Sequence record: ON528745
Strand: one strand, 5' to 3'
DNA from: Shigella phage ESH35
DNA: 64,000 nucleotides
The notes under the pieces are model-generated. The model was not told the DNA's origin. It ran no database searches and saw nothing but the letters and a program-made list of their open reading frames with translations. This document shows, one piece after another, positions 873 to 49,586 of this stretch. Position numbers and translations under genes: made by a program. Within the stretch, counting starts at the first letter, position 1; each line of letters starts with the position of its first letter.

Positions 873-1358
873 ATGATTACAGTAGATAAGTGGTTTAGAA
901 TTAATCGTGCTGATACAGGGCTGTGTAATTACTGGCCGGAACTTAGTGCAGGTACTGTCTTTAAAGTTCGTGAACTTGCAAAAGAATGTGAAGATGATAT
1001 AGAGCCTGATACTGGAATTATTGAAATTGAACTTTCCGACGGAAAGATTATTAATATCTATGATAAGCCAATTACGTATTGGTGCTTATGGAATACTGAA
1101 TCCATTGAAAATGGCGAAATTGAAGAAGTTGTAGAGCGAACTAATCAAGTTGTTCAGAAGCCTAAAGCCGATTTTCAAGGTGAACGTATTTCATACGCAT
1201 TAGCTAAATTAGCTGCACAAGAAAATAACGATGGCTATGAAGGAAATTTGATGCAAACTGCGGCAGAATATATTGAATGGCTTGAAACCCAAATTTCTTT
1301 TTCTGACCAAAAGATTCGGCAATATAAGCGATTGAATCAAATGTTTTACAATACTTGA
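873..1358 (+). CDS. 161-aa acidic protein; position and size match T4 Pin (Lon protease inhibitor), inferred only
   Basis: internal ATG of track ORF 855..1358; lies immediately upstream of gene 49 as pin does in T4. Confidence 0.4.
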   Translation: MITVDKWFRINRADTGLCNYWPELSAGTVFKVRELAKECEDDIEPDTGIIEIELSDGKIINIYDKPITYWCLWNTESIENGEIEEVVERTNQVVQKPKADFQGERISYALAKLAAQENNDGYEGNLMQTAAEYIEWLETQISFSDQKIRQYKRLNQMFYNT

Positions 1359-1400
1359 AAATAATAAATACCCTTATCTATTTAAGGTAAGGGTTTTATT

Positions 1401-1874
1401 ATGTTATTGACTGGCAAATTATACAAAGAAGAAAAACAGAAATTTTATGATGCACAAAATGGTAAATGCTTAATTTGCCAACGAGAACTAAATCCTGACG
1501 TTCAAGCTAATCACCTCGACCATGACCATGAATTAAATGGACCAAAAGCAGGAAAGGTACGTGGATTGCTTTGTAATCTCTGCAATGCCGCAGAAGGTCA
1601 AATGAAGCATAAATTTAATCGTTCTGGCTTAAAGGGACAAGGTGTTGATTATCTTGAATGGTTAGAAAATTTACTTACTTATTTAAAATCCGATTACACC
1701 CAAAATAATATTCACCCTAACTTCGTTGGAGATAAATCAAAGGAATTTTCTCGTTTAGGAAAAGAGGAAATGATGGCCGAGATGCTTCAAAGAGGATTTG
1801 AATATAATGAATCTGACACCAAAACACAATTAATAGCTTCATTCAAGAAGCAGCTTAGAAAGAGTTTAAAATGA
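1401..1874 (+). CDS. 49: endonuclease VII (Holliday junction resolvase)
   Basis: 157 aa as in T4 gp49; Cys-rich N-terminus CLICQ...HLDHDH...CNLCN; directly upstream of nrdD. Confidence 0.85.
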   Translation: MLLTGKLYKEEKQKFYDAQNGKCLICQRELNPDVQANHLDHDHELNGPKAGKVRGLLCNLCNAAEGQMKHKFNRSGLKGQGVDYLEWLENLLTYLKSDYTQNNIHPNFVGDKSKEFSRLGKEEMMAEMLQRGFEYNESDTKTQLIASFKKQLRKSLK

Positions 1875-5127: not shown

Positions 5128-5413
5128 AACGTATCGTCGTAAAGATTTAAAAGTACGTGATTATGACTATTTCGGAAAGCGTAAAGCTCCTGATGGTGTA
5201 AGTCATAAAGATATGGTTGAAAACATTTTTCGCTCAGATAAATGGCGTAGAATGAAAGGCATTGATTCAGAAGTTAAAGATGAGTTAAATCGTCAATTAC
5301 GTGGTGAAGTAAGAAAGTTGAAAAAATCAGTTTACATTGACGATGATTTTGATTACAATACTTCTCAACGAGTTGCTAAGCGTAAATCAAACGAGTGCTA
5401 TCGTTACAGCTGA
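5120..5413 (+). CDS. hypothetical basic protein (97 aa)
   Basis: internal ATG of track ORF 5081..5413; start overlaps stop of preceding ORF. Confidence 0.4.
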   Translation: MGKTYRRKDLKVRDYDYFGKRKAPDGVSHKDMVENIFRSDKWRRMKGIDSEVKDELNRQLRGEVRKLKKSVYIDDDFDYNTSQRVAKRKSNECYRYS

Positions 5414-5552: not shown

Positions 5553-5753
5553 ATGAATCCTGAATCTAAATTATCGCAACGAATTGCTGAAGCTCGTCGC
5601 CAGTTCTTTGAAAATATGATAGCCCAGGGTATTGATGACGAAGTTTTTCTGAACTGGTTTTGGAATCACAAATATTCAAAATGCGCAGGAGCAATATTAA
5701 TATCAGCCGCAATGATGTACGAAGGCTGGAAGGGTGCCAAACAGTTTAGCTAA
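5553..5753 (+). CDS. hypothetical small protein (66 aa)
   Basis: ATG directly after previous stop. Confidence 0.4.
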   Translation: MNPESKLSQRIAEARRQFFENMIAQGIDDEVFLNWFWNHKYSKCAGAILISAAMMYEGWKGAKQFS

Positions 5754-5771
5754 GGGCTTCGGCCCTTTTTG
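5753..5771 (+). terminator. rho-independent terminator, UUCG tetraloop hairpin
   Basis: AGGGC-ttcg-GCCCT followed by TTTTT. Confidence 0.65.
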
Positions 5772-5805: not shown

Positions 5806-6132
5806 ATGACTATTCAAATTAAAAACGCCATCAATTCTTATGCATATGATAAAGTAGTTTCTCTGCTAGAAAAAGGCGATATTGTAACTCCTCAAATTTT
5901 GGATAAATGGGAAAAAGAGCTTCATCAGACGATGAAACAGAATGATCAGAAGATTGGACGAAATACTGTCCGTGAATTGTTGGTTCAATATATCTTGTCA
6001 GAATTTGATGTTAAAGCTTTTGGTGTAGAATCTAAAGCTTATCAAAAACATGAAATTTCCGATAAAACTATTCGTCGTATGAAAAATCAACGCAAGAAAA
6101 AATTTGCTGACCTGAAAATTGCTAAGGTATGA
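5806..6132 (+). CDS. hypothetical protein (108 aa)
   Basis: ATG with GAGGA 8 nt upstream. Confidence 0.5.
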   Translation: MTIQIKNAINSYAYDKVVSLLEKGDIVTPQILDKWEKELHQTMKQNDQKIGRNTVRELLVQYILSEFDVKAFGVESKAYQKHEISDKTIRRMKNQRKKKFADLKIAKV

Positions 6133-6350
6133 ATATGAACGAAGCTCTTATTAACGATTTACGTCTTGCCGGATATGAAGTAAATACAAATGGCATTGGT
6201 TTAACTCAAATTGAAGGAAATGGATTCATCCTTGAGTATGAATTTAGCCAATGGTGGTTATACGCTAATTATGGCGAATTGATTGAATACGTTGACCAGT
6301 TTGATTCACTAGATGCAGCTCTCGAAGCGGCTAAGTTGATGAATGTATGA
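6129..6350 (+). CDS. hypothetical small acidic protein (73 aa)
   Basis: ATGA overlap with previous ORF. Confidence 0.45.
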   Translation: MNMNEALINDLRLAGYEVNTNGIGLTQIEGNGFILEYEFSQWWLYANYGELIEYVDQFDSLDAALEAAKLMNV

Positions 6351-6616
6351 AATTTATTAATATTTCTATTACTATTGAAAATTATGGCATTTTCTATGTT
6401 GACCAATACATGAAAATTTCATTTTTCCCAAATAAGACTGGTATTGGATATTGGGAAAGCCATGTTTCTGAATTAAATGAAAGTGAATATGTTAGTACAC
6501 ATGAAAAGTTTTTAGACTTTTTATATCATGCTGATCTAACTAGTCATTATATAGATATTCATGAATTTAAAAAGATGATGGAAAAAGTATTCCAAGCATA
6601 CTGTTTACTTAGATAA
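6347..6616 (+). CDS. hypothetical protein (89 aa)
   Basis: ATGA overlap with previous ORF. Confidence 0.45.
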   Translation: MKFINISITIENYGIFYVDQYMKISFFPNKTGIGYWESHVSELNESEYVSTHEKFLDFLYHADLTSHYIDIHEFKKMMEKVFQAYCLLR

Positions 6617-6638
6617 CTGATATCCTCTATGCTTTAAG

Positions 6639-6673
6639 ATAGATCTTCAAATATTATGATATAATAGATCTAT
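6639..6673. repeat. 8-bp inverted repeat (ATAGATCT / AGATCTAT) bracketing a TATAAT hexamer upstream of gene 55
   Basis: read directly; perfect MotA-box-like TATGCTTTA at 6628..6636 lies just upstream. Confidence 0.5.
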
Positions 6674-6694
6674 GAATTGAGCTAAGAGGTGAAA

Positions 6695-7252
6695 ATGACA
6701 GAAACTAAGCCTAAATATAATTACGTAAACAATAAAGAGCTTTTACAAGCTATTATTGATTGGAAAACAGAATTAGCAAATAATAAAGACCCAAATAAAG
6801 TAGTTCGTCAGAATGATACTATCGGATTAGCCATTATGCTTATTGCAGAAGGCTTATCTAAGCGTTTCAACTTTTCAGGATACACCCAGTCCTGGAAACA
6901 AGAAATGATTGCAGATGGTATAGAAGCTTCTATTAAGGGGCTTCATAATTTTGATGAAACGAAATATAAAAACCCACATGCATATATAACTCAAGCTTGT
7001 TTTAATGCATTCGTCCAACGTATTAAAAAAGAACGTAAGGAAGTTGCAAAGAAATATAGTTACTTCGTTCACAATGTCTATGACAGCCGTGACGACGATA
7101 TGGTTGCGTTAGTAGATGAAACTTTTATTCAAGACATCTATGATAAAATGACGCATTACGAAGAATCAACCTATAGAACACCGGGGGCTGAAAAGAAAAG
7201 TGTTGTAGACGATTCTCCTAGTTTGGATTTTTTATATGAGGCTAACGATTAA
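6695..7252 (+). CDS. 55: sigma factor for late transcription
   Basis: 185 aa from ATG 6695 (track ORF starts at GTG 6689); near-identical to recalled T4 gp55. Confidence 0.9.
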
Positions 7253-31341: not shown

Positions 31342-31524
31342 ATGGATTTATTTGAGATGTTAGAAGATAATCATTCTACGAATATCCAGAATGATTCTAG
31401 TGATTATAAGAAAGAGTACCGTATAGTATTACAGAATTATGGAATTGAAGCCCCAGATGCTCTTCTAGAAGAACTAGCTTCATACCATCTTGACCCTCCG
31501 CCTTGGGCTCCCTGGGCAAAATAA
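31342..31524 (+). CDS. hypothetical small acidic protein (60 aa)
   Basis: ATG ORF. Confidence 0.35.
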   Translation: MDLFEMLEDNHSTNIQNDSSDYKKEYRIVLQNYGIEAPDALLEELASYHLDPPPWAPWAK

Positions 31525-31536
31525 TTCAAAAAGTTG

Positions 31537-31565
31537 TTTACTTTCCTTTCTAACGATGATATGAT
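31537..31565 (+). promoter_or_regulatory. early-promoter-like element upstream of modB
   Basis: TTTACT, 17 bp, TATGAT. Confidence 0.4.
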
Positions 31566-31591
31566 AGCTTCTGAAGTATACGGAGGCTATC

Positions 31592-32215
31592 ATGATTATT
31601 AATCTTGCAGATGTTGAACAGTTATCTATAAAAGCTGAAAGCGTTGATTTTCAATATGATATGTATAAAAAGGTCTGTGAAAAATTTACTGACTTTGAAC
31701 AGTCAATTCTTTGGCAATGTATGGAAGCCAAAAAGAATGAAGCTCTTCATAGGCAGTTGAATAAAATCATTAAAAAGCATTTAACTAAATCACCTTATCA
31801 GTTATATCGTGGTATATCAAAATCGACAAAAGAACTCATTAAAGATTTACAAGTTGGAGAAGTGTTTTCAACGAACAGGGTAGATTCATTTACTACTAGT
31901 TTGCACACAGCATGTGGTTTTTCTTATGTTGAGTATTTCACTGAAATAATATTTCGCTTAAAAACTGATAAAGCTTTTAATTATTCTGACCATATCAGCG
32001 ATATTATACTTTCTTCTCCTAATACTGAGTTTAAGTACACGTATGAAGATACTGGTGGGCTAGATTCAGAGCGTACTGATAACTTAATGATGATTGTGCG
32101 TGAACAAGAATGGATGATTCCAATTGGAAAGTATAGAATAACTTCTATTTCAAAAGAAAAATTACACGATTCATTTGGAACATTTAAAGTGTATGATATT
32201 GAGGTAGTTGAATGA
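31592..32215 (+). CDS. modB: ADP-ribosyltransferase (ModB-like)
   Basis: 207 aa; R...S-T...E catalytic triad pattern; paralogue of next gene. Confidence 0.65.
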   Translation: MIINLADVEQLSIKAESVDFQYDMYKKVCEKFTDFEQSILWQCMEAKKNEALHRQLNKIIKKHLTKSPYQLYRGISKSTKELIKDLQVGEVFSTNRVDSFTTSLHTACGFSYVEYFTEIIFRLKTDKAFNYSDHISDIILSSPNTEFKYTYEDTGGLDSERTDNLMMIVREQEWMIPIGKYRITSISKEKLHDSFGTFKVYDIEVVE

Positions 32216-36040: not shown

Positions 36041-36723
36041 TGTTTGATTTTATTATAGATTTTGAAACGATGGGAAGCGGTGAAAAAGCAGCTGTTATTG
36101 ATTTGGCTGTAATTGCTTTTGACCCTAACCCGGAAGTTGTTGAAACATTCGATGAACTAGTTTCACGTGGCATTAAAATTAAATTTGACTTAAAAAGTCA
36201 AAAAGGACATCGTCTTTTTACTAAAAGCACTATCGAATGGTGGAAGAATCAATCTCCTGAAGCTAGAAAAAATATTGCACCATCAGATGAAGATGTAAGC
36301 ACTATCGATGGTATTGCAAAATTCAATGATTACATCAATGCACATAACATCGATCCTTGGAAATCTCAAGGTTGGTGCCGTGGAATGTCGTTTGATTTTC
36401 CAATTTTAGTCGATCTCATTCGCGATATTCAACGTCTTAACGGCGTTTCCGAGAATGAGCTTGATACATTTAAGTTAGAACCGTGTAAATTCTGGAATCA
36501 ACGCGACATTCGTACTAGAATTGAAGCACTTCTCCTTGTTCGTGATATGACCACTTGTCCTCTTCCAAAGGGAACTTTAGATGGATTCGTTGCACATGAT
36601 TCTATTCATGACTGTGCGAAAGACATCCTGATGATGAAGTATGCTTTGCGATACGCTATGGGTCTTGAAGATGCTCCGTCAGAGGAAGAGTGCGATCCTC
36701 TGTCTCTTCCAACAAAACGATAA
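36040..36723 (+). CDS. dexA: exonuclease A
   Basis: 227 aa; DEDD-type motif FETMG near N-terminus. Confidence 0.85.
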   Translation: MFDFIIDFETMGSGEKAAVIDLAVIAFDPNPEVVETFDELVSRGIKIKFDLKSQKGHRLFTKSTIEWWKNQSPEARKNIAPSDEDVSTIDGIAKFNDYINAHNIDPWKSQGWCRGMSFDFPILVDLIRDIQRLNGVSENELDTFKLEPCKFWNQRDIRTRIEALLLVRDMTTCPLPKGTLDGFVAHDSIHDCAKDILMMKYALRYAMGLEDAPSEEECDPLSLPTKR

Positions 36724-36730
36724 AAAGTTG

Positions 36731-36759
36731 TTTACTTCCTCGGTTAGTTGTGGTATTAT
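36731..36759 (+). promoter_or_regulatory. T4-type early promoter
   Basis: TTTACT, 17 bp, TGgTATTAT. Confidence 0.55.
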
Positions 36760-36786
36760 AACACCATAGCTACTGAGGATAATAAA

Positions 36787-37299
36787 ATGAAAATTTATCG
36801 TGTTGAATCATCGTTTAGCGCATTAAATGATGATAGTGGTATAATGAAAATTAGGCAAGAGTTATGTGTTCAATCAACTCCTTATCGTGGATTTGATTCT
36901 ATGAAAACTCGAACTTGGCTAAAATTTTGCGGTATTAATTCATCGTCATTTCATCATCATAGCGATAATTATGAAAGCCATGAAAGTATTCCTATTCCAC
37001 ACGATGATAAGTTATTAGTTGAAAATGCTAATGATGCTATTAAAACTAAATGGAATAAAGATTATTCACGAATTGAAAATTATATTCCATTGTGGTTTAT
37101 TGCATTATATCATTTTGCTTTCGCTAGTGAATATGATATAATGAGATGGTTTACTCGAGAAGAGCGTGAAGACTTAAAAGATCGTGGAATGTACATTGCG
37201 ATTTATGAAGTGCCAGATGATCAAGTTATCATTGGTGGGCATCAAGTAATGTTTCGCAAATCGCATGCCGAATTAAAAGGCTTTATTACCTTAGATTAA
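36787..37299 (+). CDS. hypothetical protein (170 aa) with His-rich segment
   Basis: internal ATG downstream of promoter; HHHSDNYESHESIPIPH. Confidence 0.45.
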   Translation: MKIYRVESSFSALNDDSGIMKIRQELCVQSTPYRGFDSMKTRTWLKFCGINSSSFHHHSDNYESHESIPIPHDDKLLVENANDAIKTKWNKDYSRIENYIPLWFIALYHFAFASEYDIMRWFTREEREDLKDRGMYIAIYEVPDDQVIIGGHQVMFRKSHAELKGFITLD

Positions 37300-39952: not shown

Positions 39953-40218
39953 AAATTATGAAATATATTAATCGTTCTATCGCGGCATTAGTATTAGCAG
40001 TGTCTTTAGCAGGATGTACTGATGCTGATAATGCAACCAAAGTTTTATCTTCAAGTGGTTTTACTAATATTGAAATCACTGGATATAATTGGTTTGGTTG
40101 TTCTGAAAATGATTTCCAACATACTGGATTTCGTGCTATTGGACCTACTGGGCAGAAAGTAGAAGGAACAGTATGTTCTGGGCTGTTCTTTAAGGATTCA
40201 ACTATTCGTTTTAAATAA
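39949..40218 (+). CDS. putative lipoprotein (89 aa)
   Basis: signal peptide with lipobox LAGC. Confidence 0.5.
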   Translation: MKIMKYINRSIAALVLAVSLAGCTDADNATKVLSSSGFTNIEITGYNWFGCSENDFQHTGFRAIGPTGQKVEGTVCSGLFFKDSTIRFK

Positions 40219-48950: not shown

Positions 48951-49586
48951 ATGTCTAAAGTAACTTACATCATCAAAGCTTCTAACGATGTTCTGAATGA
49001 AAAAACTGCTGCGATTTTAATTACTATTGCTAAGAAAGATTTCATTACAGCTGCAGAAGTTCGTGAGGTGCATCCAGATTTAGGTAACGCAGTAGTTAAT
49101 AGTAATATTGGGGTATTGATTAAAAAAGGCCTGGTGGAGAAATCTGGTGATGGATTAATCATTACAGGTGAAGCTCAGGATATTATTTCAAACGCAGCAA
49201 CTTTATACGCGCAGGAAAATGCTCCGGAACTGCTGAAAAAACGAGCAACTCGTAAAGCTCGTGAGATTACTTCTGATATGGAAGAAGATAAAGACCTCAT
49301 GTTAAAACTTTTAGATGAAAATGGATTTGTTCTTAAAAAGGTCGAAACTTATCGCAGTAACTATCTCGCTATTTTAGAAAAACGCACTCACGGAATTCGT
49401 AATTTTGAAATTAACAATAATGGAAATATGCGAATTTTTGGATACAAAATGATGGAACATCATATTCAGAAATTTACTGATATCGGAATGTCATGTAAAA
49501 TCGCTAAAAACGGTAATGTGTATCTTGACATTAAACGTTCAGCAGAAAACATTGAAGCTGTAATCACTGTAGCATCTGAACTGTGA
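48951..49586 (+). CDS. motA: middle-transcription activator MotA
   Basis: 211 aa as in T4, upstream of asiA. Confidence 0.8.
   Translation: MSKVTYIIKASNDVLNEKTAAILITIAKKDFITAAEVREVHPDLGNAVVNSNIGVLIKKGLVEKSGDGLIITGEAQDIISNAATLYAQENAPELLKKRATRKAREITSDMEEDKDLMLKLLDENGFVLKKVETYRSNYLAILEKRTHGIRNFEINNNGNMRIFGYKMMEHHIQKFTDIGMSCKIAKNGNVYLDIKRSAENIEAVITVASEL

Follow-up and report, generated by a model that had tools for sequence, protein, structure and literature searches.

A 2010 review of posttranscriptional control in bacteriophage T4 describes a group of genes—e, soc, 49, and I-TevI, plus mobE and segB—whose ribosome-binding site (RBS) is sequestered in long transcripts and is freed in RNA started at an internal promoter. 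Gene 55, which encodes the late sigma factor gp55, is absent from the masked-RBS genes in that review. Its middle promoter P55, with a start at T4 position 40180, is found in Table 1 of Hinton's 2010 review (PMC2988021), and Pm55 in T4 is highly MotA-dependent by primer extension in a motA-amber infection (PMC6024815). The gene is also transcribed in T4 by extension from the early promoter Pe40.4, which is the source of its RNA in the motA-amber infection (PMC6024815). P55 shares with canonical middle promoters (PuvsX, PmobB, and P55.8(2)) a sigma-70 −10 element with TGn, a TGCTTTA box on the same strand, and MotA dependence in T4. It departs from them in geometry: their box lies 12 ± 1 bp from the −10, whereas that of P55 lies 23 bp away, one helical turn further upstream. 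In the cryo-EM model of sigma appropriation, MotA sits on a box centered at −30/−31, with AsiA at −32 to −37.

How does the gene 55 locus of a T4 relative compare with these systems? We analyzed a stretch of 64,000 nt from Shigella phage ESH35 (sequence record ON528745), referred to throughout as the window. The phage belongs to Tequatrovirus, among the T4-like phages. For the 501 bases around the site, 506 phage records match at 90–99.6% identity, nearly all of them T4-like phages of Escherichia, Shigella, and Yersinia, and MotA is encoded in the window at 48951–49586. Comparisons between lineages drew on a set of gp55-relative loci (57 viral and 28 metagenomic, 43–100% identity). An earlier note on this DNA had picked out a MotA-like box, an inverted repeat, and a TATAAT in its spacer, and each is there, position for position. 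The features of the site and its neighboring genes are as follows:

6347..6616, + strand: upstream open reading frame (ORF) of 89 aa, phrog_1822, unknown function, absent from T4
6624..6628, + strand: CCUCU, proposed anti-Shine-Dalgarno (−48 to −44, counted from the P55 start), the 5′ side of an outer helix predicted by RNAfold
6628..6636, + strand: consensus MotA box TATGCTTTA, −44 to −36 relative to the P55 start, ending 23 bp before the −10
6639..6646, + strand: 5′ arm ATAGATCT of the inverted repeat, −33 to −26, the usual place of a MotA box
6657..6665, + strand: extended −10 TGaTATAAT of P55, −15 to −7, in the loop of the inner helix
6666..6673, + strand: 3′ arm AGATCTAT of the inverted repeat, −6 to +2
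6672..6672, + strand: inferred P55 transcription start, the base homologous to T4 40180
6685..6689, + strand: gene 55 Shine-Dalgarno AGAGG, 3′ strand of the predicted outer helix
6695..7252, + strand: gene 55, late sigma factor gp55, 185 aa, 99–100% identical to Tequatrovirus gp55

The gene 55 ATG at 6695 agrees with the 185-aa T4 annotation; the ORF list also gives an upstream GTG at 6689. The inverted repeat is 8 nt long and perfect, its 19-nt spacer holds TATAAT (6660–6665), and ATAGATCT is also a direct repeat, with copies at 6639 and 6664. A TG at 6657–6658, which had been missed, makes the −10 an extended one. The repeat does lie upstream of gene 55, but its 3′ arm ends 21 nt before the ATG, not at the distance of about 25 nt given before.

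The TATAAT is the −10 of the MotA/AsiA-dependent middle promoter P55 and therefore belongs to a promoter that was already known; the earlier note had leaned away from a standard middle promoter, and comparison with T4 overturns that part of it. T4 and the window are identical from −29 to +27, and T4 40180 corresponds by homology to window 6672, the A of AGATCTAT. The sigma-70-type element TGaTATAAT stands 7 nt before the homolog of the mapped start, so the distance from 5′ end to −10 is appropriate, by homology only. Coordinates in the PMC2988021 table were calibrated on eight T4-locus promoters, each of which has TAnnnT at about −12 to −7 (−11 to −6 for PmobB). P55 of T4 also shares with the window the consensus box at −44 to −36 and the downstream gene. 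In the 5′ arm, T4 differs only in having ATAGGTCT, with a G, for the window's ATAGATCT, with an A; it is this A that makes the dyad perfect and creates two AGATCT sites. The other difference is the extra ORF of the window 5′ of TCCTCT. It ends ...VFQAYCLLR and sits between the homolog of T4 55.1 (phrog_1662, 6129–6350) and gene 55, and homology between T4 and the window restarts exactly at TCCTCTATGC. The T4 55.1 ORF itself spans the MotA box and the whole 5′ arm, as far as the TGA of the extended −10. Mosigvirus and Dhakavirus loci have, 5′ of the box, an ORF with the same C terminus as the phrog_1822 ORF. None of the open papers searched for an earlier P55 box assignment or a gene 55 hairpin contains the P55 sequence.

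With the P55 start placed within the 3′ arm, P55 transcripts cannot form the hairpin, which is possible only in read-through RNA from upstream promoters. P55 transcripts keep just the last two bases of the 3′ arm and have a leader of 23 nt, and a 49-nt RNA beginning at +1 and ending within the coding sequence is unstructured (−2.3 kcal/mol, z 0.2). The suggestion of a leader hairpin regulating gp55 thus divides in two: an RNA hairpin is backed by the compensatory changes in relatives described below, and its place in the P55 leader is contradicted by the start. The Pe40.4 early promoter sequence is present in the window (homolog at about 5310–5350). Between it and gene 55, a GGGC-UUCG-GCCC hairpin followed by TTTTT lies at 5750–5770; it is absent from the consensus-scan list and may attenuate or stabilize read-through transcripts. 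At its 5′ end (window 6672–6680), the predicted P55 transcript reads 5′-AUGAAUUGA, that is, an AUG at the extreme 5′ end, then a single codon before the stop. Tequatrovirus, Mosigvirus, PEi20-type, and L025 loci all carry ATGAATTGAG unchanged, and Dhakavirus has ATGATTTGAG. In most other box-containing lineages, (T)TGA(A)G recurs about 10 nt 5′ of the Shine-Dalgarno, and this motif is in part complementary to the MotA box as transcribed into RNA.

How unusual is the position of the box? The earlier note had called its 23-bp distance from the −10 noncanonical, and so it is: the consensus is 12 ± 1 bp, and among perfect-core boxes with strong −10s in the window, nine are at 11–13 bp and only that of P55 is at 23 bp. 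No box of the form (a/t)(a/t)(a/t)TGCTTtA is found near −30 at 12 ± 1 bp from the P55 −10. At about −30 there is only a deviant box, ATCTTCA (6643–6649, 5 of 7 positions), 10 bp from the −10 and overlapping the 5′ arm, and in other lineages (A/G)TCTTCA at −29 to −23 is not conserved as a box. Other −10s at 11–13 bp from the consensus box (AAATAT or AATATT) are not conserved in other lineages; the same is true of TATTAT at 15 bp and TATGAT at 18 bp, and it is TATAAT that agrees with the mapped start. As a single case, one TGCTTYA box at 23 bp from a strong −10 is no more than chance would give (expectation about 0.1–0.2 per spacing bin). Eleven sequence-distinct lineages, however, have (A/G)TGCTT(T/A)A 22–23 bp from TGnTATAAT, with identities across the eleven of 0.90 in the box and 0.95 in TGnTATAAT vs. 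0.30–0.42 in the flanks and spacer. The canonical 12-bp spacing occurs in one lineage (L016/L018/L020). This conservation, together with the covariation of the arms, places the site above chance.

A pattern-based locus search found MotA homologs on the contigs of most box-containing lineages; because the search missed the MotA genes of CC31-like phages, Dhakavirus, and others, absence from its results is uninformative. RB49-type phages are reported to be without MotA and without middle promoters. On two MotA-encoding contigs (L027 and L048), AGCAAATA takes the place of the TGCTTTA box at the same 22 bp from TGaTATAAT, and a pyrimidine-rich segment complementary to the RBS is retained.

Is the inverted repeat a structure or a coincidence? 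The window contains 110 perfect 8-nt inverted repeats with loops of 3–30 nt, compared with 56 ± 7 in dinucleotide shuffles, and the inverted repeat within this single sequence is not beyond chance. Folded by itself, the 41-nt hairpin has little stability (−7.8 kcal/mol, z = −1.2) and does no better than shuffles. Across the relatives, the two arms (5′ arm / 3′ arm) take the following forms:

ATAGATCT / AGATCTAT: window and most Tequatrovirus
ATAGGTCT / AGATCTAT: T4 (G·U)
ATAGGTCT / AGACCTAT: Mosigvirus-like
ATAGGTCT / AGACTTAT: L075 (G·U)
A(A/C)GGGTCT / AGACCTAT: Dhakavirus-like
AGGTCC / GGACCT: Edwardsiella phage PEi20 and relatives
AGGTCC / GGACTT: L030 (G·U)
GGGTCC / GGACCT: L070 (G·U)

Covariation was scored on a hand-registered, arms-only alignment of ten distinct haplotypes. 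Paired cells make up 88.8% of this alignment vs. 10–45% when the partner is slid by one to three columns, and the observed covariation score was reached by 3 of 500 shuffles; the independent events behind these figures are few, and the alignment, having been built around the structure, leans toward it. At two pairs both partners have changed: AU/GC, for which T4 has the GU intermediate, and UA/CG in the PEi20-like group. Three further pairs vary only to GU. The sole mismatch in the 6-bp core (A·C) is that of L008 (IMGVR_UViG_3300030021_000012). About 85 nt 5′ of gene 55, its sequence resembles Tequatrovirus as far as the −10 and Mosigvirus from the 3′ arm on, and the promoter region of this locus is, judged by that pattern, a recombinant of T4-like and Mosigvirus-like sequence. 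A 96-column MAFFT/RNAalifold alignment of the full region gave a near-zero consensus energy, with the PEi20-type 5′ arm misregistered by 1 nt, and a search with the Rfam 15 covariance models returned one chance-level match (E = 0.22), on the opposite strand and outside the element. In view of the compensatory changes, the two arms probably do form a helix in RNA.

One alternative holds that the site is the P55 promoter only, with no RNA role: the 5′ arm would be a deviant −30 contact for MotA/AsiA and the 3′ arm the discriminator plus the initial transcribed sequence. The frequency of 8-nt inverted repeats by chance and the stability of the hairpin alone, no greater than that of shuffles, agree with this account, and the 5′ arm does overlap (A/G)TCTTCA, in which the CTT center of the MotA box is kept; MotA tolerates deviant boxes, and the statistics of the outer helix (below) are marginal. 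Yet independent constraints on two promoter elements are not expected to yield matched changes, and here both sides have changed in compensation at two pairs, while the remaining one-sided changes in the 6-bp core give G·U instead of mismatches. Nor is the −30 region conserved across lineages as a MotA-like box. We consider a promoter without an RNA role unlikely.

What would the helix do in read-through RNA? For the 81 nt from 6620 to 6700, RNAfold predicts a stem in three tiers (−19.9 kcal/mol, z −3.2, 1 of 200 shuffles). The predicted outer pairing joins CCUCU (6624–6628) to the Shine-Dalgarno AGAGG (6685–6689), the middle tier joins GCUU within the MotA box (6631–6634) to GAGC (6679–6682), and the inner tier is the 8-bp palindrome; the AUG of gene 55 is also paired in the window's predicted fold. 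The mean unpaired probability of the Shine-Dalgarno core is a poor statistic here, as shuffled CU-rich upstream sequence also pairs GAGG (mean paired fraction about 0.6), and tests of opening cost and duplex energy were used in its place. Opening the stretch from Shine-Dalgarno to AUG is predicted to cost 7.9 kcal/mol in the long RNA vs. 1.5 kcal/mol in the short RNA of the window, and 12.2 vs. 2.5 kcal/mol in T4. The long-RNA cost in T4 was reached by 0 of 200 shuffled upstream sequences. That of the window was reached by 4 of 200, and by 32 of 598 natural 60-nt window segments (P about 0.05). Gene 55 ranks 8th of 60 window RBSs in opening cost and 5th in the difference between long and short RNA. 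The positive control, the known masked RBS of gene 49 (endonuclease VII; window 1318–1415, ATG 1401), ranks 3rd of 60, and its 5′ arm holds the late-promoter-like TAATAAATA.

In other lineages with the box and TGnTATAAT, the segment from −35 to −23 is unalignable with T4 and is composed of 40% C and 34% T (74% pyrimidine) in an A+T-rich genome. Its complementarity to the local RBS (upstream segment / RBS) takes a different form in each:

L025: GCCUCUU / AAGAGGC
L033: GGCCUC / GAGGCC
L035: CCUCUCGCUUC / GAAGCGAAGAGG
L038: CUUCCG / CGGAAG
L017: ACCUAUCGCU / AGCGAUGAGGU

Against shuffles, duplex P values are 0.007–0.13 in most box-containing lineages and not significant in three (0.26–0.61), and those of lineages without the box are roughly uniform, with no complementarity signal. 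When upstream segments and RBSs were swapped between lineages, native duplexes averaged −13.1 vs. −11.8 kcal/mol for swapped ones (P = 0.036), a gap small enough that much of the complementarity must be generic, CU-rich against GA-rich. On these energy calculations, a real outer helix is plausible.

We propose that P55 is embedded in an RNA structure that would mask the gene 55 RBS in read-through RNA, a model whose prospects we judge to be evenly balanced. In RNA reading through from upstream early promoters, ATAGAUCU (6639–6646) would pair with AGAUCUAU (6666–6673), and this inner helix would close the three-tier structure, in which GCUU-GAGC and CCUCU-AGAGG pairing hides the RBS. Such RNA would be a poor template for gp55. 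RNA started at P55, being without the entire 5′ half of the structure, would be freely translated, and synthesis of the late sigma factor would thereby be tied to the MotA-dependent middle mode. Phage with a motA-amber mutation still make late proteins and, given that their gene 55 RNA is Pe40.4 read-through, any block must be partial. In time-resolved omics of T4, gene 55 RNA appears at 1 min and gp55 at 5 min; gp33 and gp45 show an equal lag (RNA at 1 min, protein at 5 min), so the delay is not specific to gene 55.

Masking of this kind would resemble that of e, soc, 49, and I-TevI in two respects: the Shine-Dalgarno and/or AUG is paired in the long RNA, as predicted for gene 55, and transcripts of the internal promoter are without the 5′ strand. 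It would differ in others. Those genes have a late TATAAATA promoter, whereas gene 55 has a MotA-dependent middle promoter; a TATAAATA late promoter was sought in 6600–6695 and none was found. Each of those genes has one compact hairpin, whereas the stem computed for gene 55 is a long-range one of three tiers whose loop contains the promoter core, and its predicted stability is lower than theirs.

The masking model can be extended to the displaced box. A box centered at −30/−31, as in the cryo-EM model, does not explain activation from −40. Tentatively, P55 may exemplify a conserved, noncanonical geometry of sigma appropriation in which the box acts at about −40, displaced upstream by one turn of the helix, and the DNA from −35 to −23 is freed to encode the RNA 5′ strand, so that the middle mode would license the late sigma factor both transcriptionally and translationally. 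We regard this extension as possible but doubtful.

Could the RBS instead be uncovered by translation? In such coupling, it would stay masked in polycistronic RNA until the 5′ strand was melted by a ribosome that is translating the upstream ORF or terminating there, and translation of gene 55 would keep step with that of the ORF before it. The stop codon of the 89-aa ORF (6614–6616) is 7 nt 5′ of the CCUCU segment, and a ribosome ending there could open the outer helix. In Mosigvirus and Dhakavirus loci, the anti-Shine-Dalgarno overlaps the last codons or the stop codon, and the reach of the T4 55.1 ORF through the box and 5′ arm points the same way. The arrangement is like MS2 coat/replicase-type coupling in that the RBS pairs with a segment at or near the end of an upstream ORF. 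It differs in that the complementary segment of gene 55 is outside the upstream ORF in most lineages and a promoter lies inside the structure. In L035, L033, L025, and L010, that segment starts at least 10 nt past the stop, where a terminating ribosome would probably fall short of it. Coupling also leaves the exact place of the promoter inside the structure unexplained, and the known T4 cases act by promoter choice; we find it distinctly unlikely.

A hairpin acting on read-through RNA in some other way, as a processing or stability element or a pause site with no control of translation, would draw on the better-supported part of the structure, since covariation backs the helix itself and the tie to the Shine-Dalgarno comes from the outer helix, a weaker prediction. 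An intrinsic terminator was rejected: the A+U-rich stem is followed by GAATTGAG, without a U-run, and is absent from the terminator scan. The helix is too short for RNase III, the region is without a GGAG RegB site, and the element is without an Rfam match. The anti-Shine-Dalgarno pattern, moreover, recurs in lineages without the inner helix, and we think a role confined to processing or pausing very improbable. The least credible account, and one we give almost no weight, makes the dyad a DNA operator, an option raised in the earlier note, at which a dimeric protein represses or modulates P55: a perfect dyad does bracket the −10 (arms at −33 to −26 and −6 to +2), and an A-T to G-C change on both arms preserves DNA symmetry too, but the G·T states of T4, L030, L070, L075, and Dhakavirus loci break that symmetry while keeping RNA pairing, which favors an RNA helix, arm sequences vary by lineage with pairing kept, other MotA-containing lineages lack the dyad and have C/T-rich, RBS-complementary sequence at the same position, and no candidate protein is known. 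The earlier interpretation is thus partly supported.

Similar layouts were seen at two other places in the window. At 31509–31606, upstream of a 207-aa RNA polymerase ADP-ribosylase gene (phrog_832, ATG 31592), a predicted hairpin pairs both the GGAGG Shine-Dalgarno and the AUG (−23.8 kcal/mol, z −2.8), and this RBS has the top opening cost of the 60 in the window, 17.2 kcal/mol. A promoter of the T4 early type (GTTTAC −35) has its −10, TGaTATGAT, partly within the 5′ arm, and RNA started there would therefore be without that arm. At 36704–36801, upstream of a 170-aa gene of unknown function (phrog_1106, ATG 36787), a predicted hairpin masks the GAGGA Shine-Dalgarno (−31.7 kcal/mol, z −6.2, 0 of 200 shuffles), with a 5′ arm that covers the spacer and the −10 of a promoter of early type (GTTTAC ... 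TGgTATTAT). The phrog_1106 locus apparently has the promoter-inside-hairpin layout at an early promoter.

What would these results mean for T4-like phages? If neither masking nor the displaced box holds, what remains is a correct sighting of a promoter that has been catalogued since 1999. The perfect MotA box, displaced to a conserved 22–23 bp from the −10, departs from the geometry accepted for sigma appropriation, an exception that can be tested, and if the box does work from there, MotA or the remodeled sigma region 4 must reach 10–11 bp further upstream than in the cryo-EM model. One stretch of DNA would then carry two codes, recruiting MotA as DNA and silencing gene 55 as read-through RNA. 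T4-like phages change over to late transcription through gp55, and masking of its RBS, if true, would add a translational layer to the early–middle–late cascade and widen the promoter-inside-masking-hairpin design from late to middle promoters.
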